Part shown: positions 12,299 to 34,792 of the stretch, piece after piece | How the letters are laid out: each line of letters starts with the position of its first letter | How positions within the stretch are numbered: position 1 is the stretch's first letter | NCBI GenBank assembly: GCA_012523265.1 | Contig: JAAYIU010000071.1 | Span: forward strand, 1 to 40,190 | DNA from: Bacteroidales bacterium | GTDB taxonomy: Bacteria > Bacteroidota > Bacteroidia > Bacteroidales > 4484-276 | Direction: 5' to 3' | Length of the DNA: 40,190 nucleotides | The notes under the pieces: model-generated | The model's input: the letters and a program-made list of their open reading frames with translations, nothing else | The model's database searches: none | Told to the model about the DNA's origin: nothing | Made by a program: the position numbers and the translations under genes

Positions 12299-13594
12299 AT
12301 GACGACAAAAGAACTTTACGAAATTTATAACCGACACCCGCAAATCACCACCGACTCACGAAACATTGCTGCCGGCAGCATATTCTTTGCCCTGAAAGGT
12401 GATAGTTTCGACGGGAATCGCTTTGCTCTGGCTGCACTGCGCGAAGGCGCCGCGTGGGCAGTGGTGGACGATGCCGGCCTGGAAAATCATCAAAAAATAA
12501 TTCTGGTGAATGATGTGTTGGAATCATTGCAACAACTGGCGCAACATCACCGCAGGCAGCTCTGCATTCCCGTTATCGGTATTACAGGCAGCAATGGCAA
12601 AACCGCCACCAAGGAGCTTATCAGCCAGGCGTTGCTGACAAAGTATAAAACTACGGCTACCCGTGGCAATCTCAACAACCACATCGGTGTGCCGCTTTCT
12701 ATTCTTTCGATTACTAATGATGTTGAAATAGCAGTGATAGAAATGGGCGCCAACCACCAGGGAGAAATCGCATCGCTGTGCCGCATCGCCCGTCCCGATT
12801 ACGGCATCATCACCAATATCGGGCGCGCCCACCTCGAAGGCTTTGGTGGCTATGCCGGTGTAATAAAGGCCAAAACGGAGCTGTACGATTTTATCCGTGA
12901 AAATGGCGGGCATCTTTTCGTTCATCACGACGATGCTTTATTGATGGAAAAATCTGCCGGCATCCCGCGCACCACTTATGGCGCTTTGCCTGCCGCTGAC
13001 GTTCAGGGATTCATCACCGAAAAATTCCCCGTACTGGCACTGCAACTTGCGCATCCCGCTAAGGGAACCACCATCAACACCCAACTGGCCGGCAGCTACA
13101 ACTTCCCCAATGTGATGGCCGCCGTTGCCATTGCACGCTATTTCGGCGCCGACCTGCATGCTGTAGCCAGGGCTTTGCGAAATTACCAGCCTGCAAACAA
13201 TCGCTCGCAATGGCAAACCACATCCCAAAACAAACTGCTTATCGACCTCTACAACGCCAACCCCGGAAGCATGGCTGCGGCAATCGAAAACTTTGCCCAA
13301 GCGCCTTACGGCAATAAAATGCTCATCCTGGGCGATATGCTGGAGCTGGGCGCCGAAAGCTATGCCGAACATGCCACCATCATTAGGATGGCGCAAGATG
13401 CTGATTTTGAAAAAGTGATTTTGGTAGGAAAACACTTTTTAGCTTTCGCTGATGAAGCCTCCACGAAATTCTTGCTTTTTGTAAATGCCGATGCAGCCCG
13501 TAAAGCTATTCATGAAATGAATTTAAAAAACAAAACAATTCTGCTGAAAGGCTCGCGGGGTATCCGGCTCGAAAAAATATTGGATATTTTATAA
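12299..13594 (+). CDS. murF: UDP-N-acetylmuramoyl-tripeptide--D-Ala-D-Ala ligase
   Basis: TDSR, ITGSNGKT, GNLNNHIGVP, EMGANH, YNANP, ILGDMLELG and LKGSRG motifs. Confidence 0.95.
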   Translation: MTTKELYEIYNRHPQITTDSRNIAAGSIFFALKGDSFDGNRFALAALREGAAWAVVDDAGLENHQKIILVNDVLESLQQLAQHHRRQLCIPVIGITGSNGKTATKELISQALLTKYKTTATRGNLNNHIGVPLSILSITNDVEIAVIEMGANHQGEIASLCRIARPDYGIITNIGRAHLEGFGGYAGVIKAKTELYDFIRENGGHLFVHHDDALLMEKSAGIPRTTYGALPAADVQGFITEKFPVLALQLAHPAKGTTINTQLAGSYNFPNVMAAVAIARYFGADLHAVARALRNYQPANNRSQWQTTSQNKLLIDLYNANPGSMAAAIENFAQAPYGNKMLILGDMLELGAESYAEHATIIRMAQDADFEKVILVGKHFLAFADEASTKFLLFVNADAARKAIHEMNLKNKTILLKGSRGIRLEKILDIL

Positions 13595-13604
13595 AAAATG
13601 GGAT

Positions 13605-13653
13605 GTACAGACGCACGGCTCCCGCTTGGGCGGGGCAGGCCGTGCGTCTCTAT
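13605..13653. repeat. REP-like palindrome with a 21-bp hairpin inserted at its centre
   Basis: GTACAGACGCACGG-[CTCCCGCTTGGGCGGGGCAGG]-CCGTGCGTCTCTAT; the outer arms form an 11-bp perfect inverted repeat. Confidence 0.7.
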
Positions 13654-13668
13654 AAATAAAATTTTATT

Positions 13669-22204: not shown

Positions 22205-22920
22205 GTCCACTAATTTCCGCTAATCTTTTTTTTAACCACAGAGAACGCAGAGAAGACGCAAAGAGCGCGGAGGAAAATCTCTGTGCACACTGTGAAAAAC
22301 TCCGTGTCCTCTGTGGTTTTTCTTTGGTTTTAATCTAAAATTCGTGCTCATTCGCCTAATTTGTGTGAATTCGCGGATGCTTTTGACCGTCCACTAATTT
22401 CCGCTAATTTTTTTTTAACCACAGAGAACGCAGAGAAGACGCAAAGAACGCGGAGGAAAATCTCTGTGCACTCTGCGAAAAACTCCGTGACCTCTGTGGT
22501 TTTTCTTTGGTTTTAATATAAAATTCGTGCTCATTCGCCTGATTCGTGTGAATTCGCGGATGCTTTTGACCATCCGCTAATTTCAGCTAATCTTTTTTTA
22601 ACCACATAGAGAACGCAGAGAAGACGCAAAGAACGCGGAGGGAAATCTCTGTGCACTCTGTGAAAAACTCCGTGACCTCTGTGGTTTTTCTTTGGTTTTA
22701 ATATAAAATTCGTGTTCATTCGCCTAATTCGTGCGAATTCGAGGATAAACCGGCTGTCCGCTAATTTCCGCCAATTGAGCTAATTTCCGCTAATTATTTT
22801 TAACCACAGAGAACGCAGAGAAGACGCAAAGAACGCGGAGGAAAATCTCTGTGCACTCTGTGAAAAACTCCGCGGCCTCTGTGGTTTTTCTTAAAATTGA
22901 ATTCGTGTGAATTCGCGGAC
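22205..22920. repeat. Tandem array of four ~184-bp nested-palindrome units
   Basis: Units start at about 22205, 22389, 22572 and 22756. Each has an inner 85-87 bp AACCAC...CTCTGTGGTT palindrome enclosed by TCCRCTAATTTCCGCTAAT ... ATTCGTGTGAATTCGCGGA arms. Confidence 0.95.
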
Positions 22921-31328: not shown

Positions 31329-32237
31329 ATGAAAAGCGAAATTATCCCTTACAGCGGATTTGCTAACCATGAAAAGATTTATGTCGCCGGCCATGCTTTC
31401 AAAAGCTATAAACTGGGTAATGTGCGCGAAGATCAGCGCCGGCTTCGCAACTTCCTGCAGATGATCCGTCGCTACCGACTCCGGCCACTCACCGATATGC
31501 CGATAGAGGTGCAGATAAACGGCAGCGTCCATACCGTTACCACCAACAGCAAAGGTTTTTTTAGCGGCGTGTTTCCAAGTAGTGGCAAGCCCAAAGGCTG
31601 GGAGCCTTATCAGCTTAAGCTCGACGGGATGGACAAAACCGTGGAGGGACAATTTCTGGCTGCCGACCGGCACAGCGTGGGCGTTATCTCCGACATCGAC
31701 GATACGCTAATTGTTTCGCATGCTACGCGTTTGCTAAAAAAGGTGGCGCTGATGCTTTTCAAAAATGCTTACTCCCGTAAAACCGTTCCCAACATCGACG
31801 AGTTTTATGAAAAAATCAAAAGCCTCAACGACGGCAAGCTCCCCAACGATTTTTTCTACGTAAGCAACAGCGAGTGGAACCTCTTCGACCTCTTGCACAA
31901 CATCTTCTACATCCATCATTTACCCGAAGGTATATTTTTATTAAATGAGCTGAAAGTTGGATTGTGGGAGCCTGTGCGTGCCGGCAACACACATTCTAAG
32001 CATAAAATTAACATCATCAAGTTTCTTTTAAAGTTTTACCCCGACAAACAGTTTATCCTGCTGGGCGACAATGGCCAGAAAGACATGACCATCTATTCGG
32101 AGATATGCACCAGCCAGCCGCACCGCATAAAAGGGGTGCTGATACGGATACTAAAACGCAAAGGGATGAAGCAATACCACGCTTTCGAAGAGCGCATTTC
32201 AGGGCTAAATATTCCGGTGGGATATCTTAGCGAATAG
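31329..32237 (+). CDS. App1-family phosphatidate phosphatase-like protein (DUF2183)
   Basis: GVISDIDDT HAD-type motif, FYVSNSEWNL, and FILLGDNGQKD..IY motifs. Confidence 0.8.
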   Translation: MKSEIIPYSGFANHEKIYVAGHAFKSYKLGNVREDQRRLRNFLQMIRRYRLRPLTDMPIEVQINGSVHTVTTNSKGFFSGVFPSSGKPKGWEPYQLKLDGMDKTVEGQFLAADRHSVGVISDIDDTLIVSHATRLLKKVALMLFKNAYSRKTVPNIDEFYEKIKSLNDGKLPNDFFYVSNSEWNLFDLLHNIFYIHHLPEGIFLLNELKVGLWEPVRAGNTHSKHKINIIKFLLKFYPDKQFILLGDNGQKDMTIYSEICTSQPHRIKGVLIRILKRKGMKQYHAFEERISGLNIPVGYLSE

Positions 32238-32273
32238 GCCTTGGTCTTCAGTAAGAAGTCTACATCAAAAATT

Positions 32274-32550
32274 ACTGCAGAGAGCCTCTGCGGTGATTCT
32301 TATCTTTTCTCTGTTTTCTCAGTGCCTTCTCTGCGTCCTCTGTGGTAAAAAAAAGAGCGCGCAGCGCGATCTTTATTCCTCTGTGGTGATTATTCAAAAA
32401 GCAAAAACCGCGGAGACGCCAAGACGCGGAGAAAAAGATAATAACGCTGCGCCTCTCCGCCTCTGCGGTGATTCTTATCTTTTCTCTGTTTTCTCAGTGC
32501 CTTCTCTGCGTCCTCTGTGGTAAAAAAAAGGATCGCGAAACGCGATCTTT
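32274..32550. repeat. Two tandem copies of a ~175-bp modular palindromic repeat, left of ssb
   Basis: CTCTGCGGTGATTC...CTCTGTGGTAAAAAAAAG recurs at 32286 and 32461; the first copy has a collapsed first hairpin. Confidence 0.92.
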
Positions 32551-32630
32551 GAAAACTTGTTGCATATCGAAAACAACTTGTCTCTCCTTTCGCTTTCATC
32601 ATGTCCGCAGTTTGTGTTCAGCACTATCAT

Positions 32631-32726
32631 TATCCGTTTGTAAACGGTTAGAAACAACTATATCCGCTTTGAAACAGATACAAATGTTTATTAACCGAAT
32701 CAGGCGCGAGCCCCGTGCTATCTTTG
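32631..32726 (+). promoter_or_regulatory. ssb promoter: -7 box plus upstream palindromic, 10-bp-phased motifs
   Basis: TATCTTTG at 32719-32726; CCGTTT-GT-AAACGG at 32634-32647; a second TATCCG-led imperfect palindrome 30 bp later. Confidence 0.55.
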
Positions 32727-32770
32727 CTTCATAATTATTTATTCATTTATAAATTAAAAAACTTACTACT

Positions 32771-33112
32771 ATGAAATCTTTAAGAAACAGTGTTCACCTG
32801 ATCGGCAACCTGGGAATGGATCCGGAAGTAAAAGATGTGTCTAATGGCCGCAAAATGGCTCGCTTCTCGCTGGCCACCTCCGACAGTTACATCAACCAAA
32901 AAGGCGAGAAAGTTACCGAAACCCAATGGCACAACCTGGTAATCTGGGGCAAGCTGGCCGAAGTGGCCGGGCAATATCTAAAAAAAGGAAAGCAAATAGC
33001 TGTAGAAGGCAAACTGGAAACCAGCATCTTCGACGACAAAAATGGCAACCGCAAGTATTACACGCAAATTGTGGTAAACGACCTGCTTATGCTCAGCGGG
33101 AAAAGCAACTAA
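32771..33112 (+). CDS. ssb: Short single-stranded DNA-binding protein (OB fold only, no acidic tail)
   Basis: NSVHLIGNLGMDPE, FSLATSD, TQWHNLVIWGKLAE and LKKGKQIAVEGKL motifs; 113 aa ending LMLSGKSN. Confidence 0.93.
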   Translation: MKSLRNSVHLIGNLGMDPEVKDVSNGRKMARFSLATSDSYINQKGEKVTETQWHNLVIWGKLAEVAGQYLKKGKQIAVEGKLETSIFDDKNGNRKYYTQIVVNDLLMLSGKSN

Positions 33113-33125
33113 AAGTTGGGATTAA

Positions 33126-33433
33126 ACCGCGGAGACGCCAAGACGCGGAGAAAAAGATAATTACGCTGCGCCTCTGCGTCTCTGCGGTGATTCTACTCTT
33201 TTCTCTGTTTTCTCAGTGCCTTCTCTGCGTCCTCTGTGGTAAAAAAAAGAGCGCGCAGCGCGATCTTTGTGCCTCTGTGGTGATTCTTCAAAAAGCAAAA
33301 AACCGCGGAGACGCCAAGACGCGGAGAAAACAATAATAACGCTCCGTCTCTGCGGTGATTCAAAGCTTTTCTCTGTTTTCTCAGTGCCTTCTCTGCGTCC
33401 TCTGTGGTAAAAAAAGAGCGCACAGCGCGATAT
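33126..33433. repeat. Two tandem copies of the same ~176-bp repeat, right of ssb
   Basis: ACCGCGGAGACGCCAAGACGCGGAG starts at 33126 and 33302, same orientation as the copy at 32407. Confidence 0.92.
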
Positions 33434-33472
33434 TCTTAGTTAAACATCCAATAGTACCGCACTCGAAGAAAA

Positions 33473-34792
33473 CTACTCCCGCTGAAAAGTATAAACACCT
33501 CCACTTTGCATAAGCGTCATTTCGTTCGCTTCCGGATTGAACCGCATGACGATGCCGGCAGGAACAAACCCAAACTGATGCTCGCCGGTGGCAGTGAGCG
33601 GAAATGCCGGCTGCCCGGTAGCTTGCGCCATAAGCGTGCTATCCTCGCGGCTAATGGTGATCTTTAACGGAATATCATCGGAAGAATAAATACCAGTATA
33701 GCGATCGAGCTTTTCGGGTGGTAAAGTCAACGCGGCTGAAAAAACAGGCAACTGATAATCTTTCCCGAAAAATATGCTCAGCGCACCAATCAAAATATCG
33801 TTACGGGGCATCGACACAGCGTTGGTAGTGTAGGCAACGAATACTTCATCATCGGGAAAATAAGCTGCCATCGCCTGAAATCCATCGATGCCGCCGGTGT
33901 GCCCAAAAGCCTGGCGTTCAAAGAAGGGATAGGTAAAAAGCCCTAAACCATAACCATCGCGAATGTCCACCATCTGTTGGCGGGCGCTGTCGCTAATGAG
34001 TGTTCCGGTGAAAAGGCAAATCATAAAACGATTCAGATCGGCAGGTGTCGACACTACCCCGCCGGCGCCCATGGCTGCCGAGGTACTGGTTTCGGGCATA
34101 AGCTCCCACCTGGTGGCGCGGGCATACGAAAATGCCTCGTTGCGATCGCTGTTGGTGGCGCCACCAAAATAAGTATTCAGCAGCCCACAAGGTTTGGCGA
34201 TGCGCTGCTGCAAGAGTACGTCGTACCGTTGGCCGGTAATCTCTTCGGCGATGTAGGAAAGCAGCAAATAGTTGGTATTAGAATATTCAGCCTTTTCATC
34301 AGGCCCGAACACTACACCGCCCTCTTTTACCCGCAGCAGCATCTGCTCGCGCGACTGAGGCTCGTAGCACCATTGCCCATATTCGGGATTATCGGTGTAG
34401 TTGTACAATCCGCTGCGATGCCCCAGCAACTGATGGATGGTGATCTTATCGGCATTGGGAAGAAGCGGGAAAAATTTATCCAGCTTCGTCGCAAGCGTCA
34501 ACTGTTTTTCGTCGATAAGCTGCATGATGATCACCGCAGTAAATGTTTTGGAAATGCTTCCGATACGGTATTTGGTAAGTGCATCGGCGGGCATCTCTGC
34601 TTCGATATTGGCATAGCCAAAAGTGTTTTGATACACTTCCTTTCCATTTTTAAAAATAGAAATGCTGCCCATGCCCTGGTGGTTTTCGTCGATACGCTGA
34701 AACAGCGAGTCGAGTTTGGCTGTGTTTACAGATTGTGCAGCAACAGCAAGGCTGGCCAGCACTAGCGAAAAAAAGAGGAATTGTTTTTTCAT
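33473..34792 (-). CDS. Serine hydrolase (beta-lactamase class C / DD-peptidase fold) with C-terminal DUF3471-like domain
   Basis: Signal peptide; SISK (SxxK), LLGHRSGL, YSNTNY and GHTGG motifs; C-terminal QATGQPAFPL region. Confidence 0.85.
   Translation of the reverse strand: MKKQFLFFSLVLASLAVAAQSVNTAKLDSLFQRIDENHQGMGSISIFKNGKEVYQNTFGYANIEAEMPADALTKYRIGSISKTFTAVIIMQLIDEKQLTLATKLDKFFPLLPNADKITIHQLLGHRSGLYNYTDNPEYGQWCYEPQSREQMLLRVKEGGVVFGPDEKAEYSNTNYLLLSYIAEEITGQRYDVLLQQRIAKPCGLLNTYFGGATNSDRNEAFSYARATRWELMPETSTSAAMGAGGVVSTPADLNRFMICLFTGTLISDSARQQMVDIRDGYGLGLFTYPFFERQAFGHTGGIDGFQAMAAYFPDDEVFVAYTTNAVSMPRNDILIGALSIFFGKDYQLPVFSAALTLPPEKLDRYTGIYSSDDIPLKITISREDSTLMAQATGQPAFPLTATGEHQFGFVPAGIVMRFNPEANEMTLMQSGGVYTFQRE

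Follow-up and report, generated by a model that had tools for sequence, protein, structure and literature searches.

The stretch of DNA analysed here, called the window, is 40,190 nucleotides long and comes from a Bacteroidales bacterium. It is contig C436 of a genome bin (G000) of 3.98 Mb in 476 contigs, 93% complete, and a profile search finds type IX secretion genes among its proteins, which mark it as Bacteroidota. The sister species G002, G005 and G007, two independent loci (L080 and L081) and the runs or strains X3, X8 and X11 were compared with it. The site under study reads, in order, app1 (+), repeats, ssb (+), repeats and a serine hydrolase gene (-), with the following features.

31329..32237, + strand: APP1-like phosphatase gene, left flank (PF09949; the G002 protein is 95% identical)
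32270..32404, + strand: unit 1, with a short resident hairpin, half-arm, A-run, small hairpin, partial arm and linker
32405..32551, + strand: unit 2, with an ssb-type hairpin head, half-arm and variant small hairpin, up to the left junction
32552..32629, + strand: non-repeat spacer, a presumed donor flank, without meaningful match beyond the site
32632..32700, + strand: operator-like run of short palindromes 5' of ssb, a conserved motif in the alignment
32719..32726, + strand: TATCTTTG, a match by sequence to the Bacteroidota -7 promoter box, conserved in the alignment
32771..33112, + strand: short SSB (ssb_A, the inserted copy), 113 aa, without acidic tail (PF00436)
33124..33299, + strand: unit 3, the sole full unit (176 bp), with an ssb-type head and a resident-type tail
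33300..33434, + strand: unit 4, its head lacking one right-arm period and its tail truncated
33473..34792, - strand: serine hydrolase gene (beta-lactamase-family fold), right flank (PF00144)

The element TATCTTTG was identified by the Bacteroidota -7 box consensus, which we take to be TAnnTTTG, and a scan for sigma-70 promoters found none. A long SSB ending in DDLPF is encoded on contig C13; ssb_A is a short paralogue lacking the acidic C-terminal tail.

In a full unit, a hairpin with 8-bp-period arms is followed by a 44-bp half-arm, then by an A-run, a small hairpin and part of an arm. All four units have the same half-arm sequence, and the hairpin of unit 3 folds with a z-score of -4.1. Rfam gave no match at the locus and one chance-level match elsewhere in 13.6 kb. 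The preliminary description had counted four units in the same orientation, and this is confirmed: they start at 32270 or 32274, 32405, 33124 and 33300, and equivalent positions across the gene are exactly 719 bp apart (32405 to 33124). Its unit length of about 175 bp holds for unit 3 only, the others being 132, 147 and 135 bp, and its bracketing of ssb by two units on each side is true of the window but is not a fixed state, L080 having three on each side. The short palindrome of copy 1 is symmetric as described, with a 13-bp stem, but it is not a shortened copy: a homologous short hairpin lies at the same spot in G002, where ssb is absent, so the hairpin of unit 1 is an old resident. In copy 4, described as shortened but symmetric, the right arm alone is one period shorter. 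The enclosed interval 32551-33120 does contain ssb and its regulatory region, but not exactly these, as the spacer of about 80 bp (32552-32629) lies inside it too.

Is the arrangement an assembly error? Both junctions between ssb and the repeats lie on single unitigs in four of four runs from four studies (unitigs break within the arrays), and L080, an independent metagenome contig that is 98% identical, makes the same join from app1 through array, ssb and array to the hydrolase gene. Misassembly was rejected on these grounds.

Empty sites and the junctions of ssb

Did ssb enter an existing array, or did the repeats colonise both sides of the gene? Both had been considered in the preliminary description, and the relatives speak for the former. 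Sites without ssb were found in all three close relatives that hold the hydrolase gene (G002, G005 and G007), and in each the site is occupied by repeats. In G002, all that lies between app1 and the hydrolase gene is four units of 133 bp, which belong to the repeat family of the window, and in G007 and G005 short repeats without ssb lie at the 3' end of the hydrolase gene. The target was an array of repeats where two genes converge, and ssb_A is an insertion of an extra ssb into this array.

On the left side, similarity to the relatives begins sharply at 32630, and the spacer intervenes before the array. This 80-bp spacer has no meaningful match outside the site in the G000 genome and the loci compared; since its donor was not found, both junctions are mapped approximately rather than to the base. 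On the right side, a donor-type hairpin runs directly into the array with no unique DNA between. The hairpin lies within about 10 bases downstream of the ssb stop codon in the window, L081, G005 and G007, and thus it likely travelled with the gene. The best non-self matches of its head are in the ssb arrays of L081 (87-90%) and G005 (83%), other clusters of G000 reaching 82% at most, and the tail has full-length non-self matches at the empty site of G002 only. Reciprocally, the arrays of L081 find their best G000 matches in the window array. Judged by these sequence matches, unit 3 is a chimera, its hairpin being of the type linked to ssb and its tail of the type resident at the site.

The native copy and strain variation

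Where is the native copy? G002, G005 and G007 have one short ssb each, outside the app1-hydrolase site. It lies between recQ and OsmC/glutaminase in G007, between an xerD-like gene and glutaminase in G002, and after a nitrilase gene in G005, where recQ probably lies opposite, beyond an array that was not assembled (the arrays at the two contig ends are 86% alike over 126 bp). In L081, ssb is at the OsmC site with arrays on both sides, and its protein is about 88-89% identical to that of ssb_A. These four loci share one flank in a chain, and we read them as one native locus with one-sided rearrangements. For the same reason the idea that the gene takes up a different place in each species was rejected, and ssb_A is the sole clean two-sided insertion among the loci compared.

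The first 1837 bases of L081 are 100% identical to contig C96 of G000, which ends inside OsmC. Sequencing depth at the OsmC locus follows that of the window in three runs (6-9 versus 8-10, 14.1 versus 15/13.6 and 5.6 versus 5-6.6), and both ssb alleles are present in all four runs compared with L081, with no second diverged OsmC/glutaminase version listed. The co-varying depth and the match of L081 to C96 make it likely that the species carries two short ssb genes, ssb_A and ssb_B; the claim is put no higher in view of some 22 kb of duplicates in the bin. These duplicates, found in C271/C406 and other contig pairs at 79-95% identity and including recQ, suggest that contigs of a sister species are present in the bin. 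The identity of ssb_A is 87.9% to ssb_B and 89.1% to the G007 gene, and the tree is a polytomy, so that a copy from the own genome and a transfer from a sister lineage fit alike. The dN/dS of ssb_A is 0.12-0.16 against four sister copies, and the inserted gene is under purifying selection.

With heads written as h and tails as t, the window has the order h1-ta-h2-tc-ssb-h3-tb-h4-td, while L080 has h1-ta-h2-tb-h4-tc-ssb-h3-ta-h2-tb-h4-td, with a 432-bp direct repeat of 97.5% identity around ssb. The L080 order could be obtained by a single crossover if one allele carried ssb and the other had lost it, or by gene conversion. The head of unit 2 is replaced by a head of the unit 4 type in the X3 strain, in L080 and probably in X11; in X3 this downstream-type h4 head stands upstream of ssb near chromosome depth (14.6 versus 15 and 13.6). 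A like swap is present upstream of ssb_B in X8, at depth 13 versus 17.

The earlier suggestion of recombination across ssb is thus borne out for exchange, by the L080 repeat and the swapped units in two strains, but amplification and excision were not seen in contigs. The depth of ssb is close to that of its flanks, and contigs drop rare forms. No circle and no credible ssb-less joint was found in the contigs, which cannot show rare circles. Two candidate circle joints, 33365-to-32479 in the window and 3516-to-2826 in L081, were rejected, as both are near chromosome depth and the former is linear in L080. Joints that skip ssb (811-829 bp, and 748 bp at L081) were not counted as ssb-less alleles, as one of their sides is shorter than 30 letters and the sequence in between is mostly foreign.

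The repeat family and other genes between its copies

The family was counted by sequence pattern, an HMM of the arm being too insensitive. The core pattern has 92 matches in 39 clusters in G000 versus 0 in a Markov-4 simulation. The refined pattern has 126 matches in 60 clusters in G000, and 19 matches in 15 clusters in the part of G007 covered (2.36 of about 3.7 Mb), with 0 in reversed controls. Clusters of the CACAGAG-type arm are almost all intergenic. A literature search, with most subscription journals outside its scope, returned no description of the repeat family or of a repeat-bracketed ssb. Other repeats are present in the window itself. A second array at 22205-22900 has four units of about 183 bp, in which CACAGAG hairpins are combined with an ATTCG-type palindrome family; the array there (22235-22885) is of another subtype and lies at a synteny break relative to G007. 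An inverted repeat at 13591-13667, between two genes, presumably resembles a REP doublet of the GTAG type.

Is the family a kind of REP? The repeats share with REP, BIME and REPIN sequences, as characterised in the available text of PMC3333891, PMC3116915 and PMC3733652, that they are imperfect palindromes scattered through intergenic DNA close to the 3' ends of genes, that they pair up as hairpins, and that they form tandem clusters whose copy number differs between strains (here 2+2 versus 3+3). Their arms differ from those of REPs and REPINs in being runs of 8-bp CACAGAG-type units. There is no GTAG at the feet of the hairpins; CGTC occurs inside the arms, and CGTC-tagged REP families exist according to the available text of PMC3733652. 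The three PF01797 Y1 transposase genes of G000 all carry other, unrelated repeats, and the family is not placed with REP/REPIN-RAYT because it has no linked RAYT; its candidate partner would be a PD-(D/E)XK protein instead. In behaviour the array resembles BIMEs, for which the available text of PMC3333891 reports occasional capture of neighbouring genes. As in repeat-mediated duplication and deletion, direct repeats on both sides allow the loss or duplication of an enclosed gene. A 202-aa ORF that is RAYT-like by eye, and was not listed by the PF01797 search, lies at G000:C133:2520-3127 (L404) with its own palindromes on both sides; these differ from the CACAGAG family, of which one arm lies 150 bp upstream of the ORF.

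Are other genes bracketed in the same way? Five intervals shorter than 3.5 kb between two clusters hold genes in G000, ssb's included. The other bracketed genes sought in the preliminary description thus do exist, in four intervals, but those of C155 and C234 give no sign of a move. The C155 pair is collinear with G007. The antitoxin-PIN pair of C234 (G000:C234:1-1650, L369) has direct composite arrays of the same subtype on both sides and occupies the same site in G002 and G005; G007 has there a single hairpin of another family and no genes. Bracketing can therefore arise without a move. The bracketed gene of C80 is present in G007, and that of C395 was not found in the part of G007 covered. 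Among the 469 collinear junctions between G000 and G007, repeats occur at 13/323 without length change, 5/90 with extra length in G000 and 1/56 with extra length in G007; gene gain is not enriched at repeat sites. When G000 was compared with the 64% of G007 covered, 30 relocations were counted in 1126 triplets. Six of these involve a gene, in some cases perhaps a paralogue, and among the six ssb alone is flanked by repeats on the left and on the right. A MITE-like element makes up 16/20 of the G000 relocations. It is about 255 bp long, has short inverted repeats at its ends and palindromes inside, and is represented by 46 BLAST pieces in G000, on many contigs (C210, C283, C327, C372 and C471 among them), and at G007:C9:11230-11484.

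Short ssb genes were then considered as a group. The survey comprises 139 distinct proteins, 106 of them with full flanks, and a DUF2116-like gene, present in 68 flank stretches, is the usual neighbour. Only 3/106 loci are bracketed, all in this clade, which leaves the notion of an ssDNA-binding cargo as suggestive in itself rather weak; five ssb loci have a repeat on one side or the other, and only one of these lies outside the clade. In relatives without these repeats, short ssb is found in several neighbourhoods and with extra copies. A move can thus take place where there are no such repeats, and, as the unmoved C234 pair shows, their presence is not enough to cause one. Tandem short ssb copies occur in relatives without repeats at L359 (G030:C78), L360 (G014:C9) and L361 (G021:C32); the G030 pair is an 860-bp duplication, 100% identical, and may be an assembly artefact. 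At L043:5040-6700 (G006:C16), with genes named by eye, two probable toxin-antitoxin pairs lie downstream of a short ssb, with a duplicated ssb 3' end between them, an arrangement that would be expected if genes integrated at this end of ssb.

The upstream palindrome motif is present within 220 bp 5' of the gene in 89/106 ssb loci, versus 1/106 in the next 220 bp. This palindrome run is conserved across Bacteroidota and is a putative operator. No regulon appeared in G000: among the matches listed, loose ones are scattered and strict forms are at ssb only. Bacteroidetes SOS boxes are given in the available text of PMC8565304 as GGA-N5-TCC or CTAA-N5-TTAG; neither was seen by eye in 32552-32770, and the conserved ssb motif looks unlike them.

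Possible routes of ssb into the array

How did ssb come to lie in the array? Note that the evidence base is a single event, picked by the first reading of the sequence. With moderate confidence, we suggest that ssb was inserted, likely in a single event, when the recombination machinery of the host used the dispersed repeats as an anchor. A donor piece of spacer, promoter, ssb and 3' hairpin would have come from the native locus or from a sister lineage, its right end anchored by repeat similarity and its left end joined at a non-repeat point. The mode may have been homology-facilitated illegitimate recombination, in which one end lies in shared sequence and the other does not. The locus likewise has one junction in the repeat and one outside, which fits a homology-anchored, partly illegitimate event. 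Further copies of the hybrid unit could then have arisen by slippage, and one may have been copied leftward over the 570-bp insert by gene conversion or unequal crossover, homogenising the flanks. The repeats are likely gene-less arms of GxxExxY nuclease cassettes, and at this site they would act as passive homology and probably as terminator-like hairpins. The passive-homology model is tempered by the available text of PMC1428787, where REPs are at only four amplification junctions and are not preferentially used.

Could an enzyme have been at work instead? A GxxExxY nuclease of the PD-(D/E)XK type, or another enzyme that reads the arms, might cut the array, and repair from another array would copy ssb into it in a homing-like manner. 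Such copy-and-paste predicts that the native copy is kept, as it appears to be, and gene capture by nuclease-driven recombination has been proposed for BIMEs in the available text of PMC3333891. GxxExxY genes are present in 7/8 other genomes of the genus. Of 20 such genes fetched, 18 were examined, two broken loci being left out. Arms lie within 300 bp of 2/18 by the strict pattern, versus 0.3% of random windows, and of 6/18 by a loose pattern written after seeing the flanks, versus 0.7%; other GxxExxY genes carry other palindrome types. G000 itself has a possible remnant at C444:4600-4755 (L370), where an arm 90% like the half-arm is followed by 14 codons resembling a GxxExxY start, both absent at that site in G007 and G005. 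The arm and the GxxExxY-like start are fused there in frame to an esterase gene, and G002 has a probable toxin-antitoxin pair at this place. However, no intact GxxExxY was found in the incomplete G000 bin or in G005, gene gain at repeat sites is unenriched, the left junction is imprecise, and the literature searched holds no data on GxxExxY activity. Compared with the arms at GxxExxY genes, the arrays here are direct and chimeric and enclose a housekeeping-type gene rather than a nuclease. We consider this route unlikely. The same holds for the wider proposal of an undescribed GxxExxY-nuclease system for which any CACAGAG-arm array could serve as a landing pad, repair of a cut array from another one copying whatever gene stands between two hairpins, with ssb_A as captured cargo and the chimeric unit as the scar between donor and target.

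Ranking next, and also improbable, is that the repeats were bystanders: an ssb module would have landed illegitimately in a permissive convergent spacer, with its 3' hairpin hitch-hiking, and array turnover would have followed. The left junction is non-repeat and short ssb varies in its neighbourhood without these repeats, as would be expected in this case; arrays also homogenise across the resident toxin-antitoxin pair of C234, and the repeats are often at fixed orthologous sites. Against it, no more than 60 clusters were found in 3.98 Mb and ssb landed in one of them, and on the right the donor-type hairpin abuts array sequence without unique DNA.

In integrons, core boxes RYYYAAC and GTTRRRY bound the attC hairpin. 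That the units are attC-type sites, between which an IntI-like recombinase would have moved ssb as a cassette, is very improbable and largely refuted: the units do fold as imperfect hairpins around one small gene, much as in integron cassettes, but the core is present in 0/4 units, the integrase search of G000 gave eight weak matches with none over the TIGR02249 cut-off (best 120.8 versus 265), no recombinase is among the 28 window proteins scanned, ssb has its own promoter, the left junction is imprecise, and the units also stand in tandem without genes between. The preliminary description had likened the repeats to attC or REP-type sites; with no GxxExxY or RAYT tied to the array either, this site-specific reading is not upheld.

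We return to recombination anchored in the repeats. As one event explicable by ordinary recombination, the case establishes no new mobile system, and no dedicated cassette system was found in this analysis. The results suggest that this is probably a one-off repeat-assisted gene insertion, and that such repeats can occasionally move genes. The locus documents with unusual completeness how a gene came into a repeat array of a bacterium, since sites without the gene, a likely donor locus, a hybrid unit and intermediate strains are all at hand. The repeat family can thus take part in gene relocation, and it provides a substrate for asking whether GxxExxY acts on the arms.
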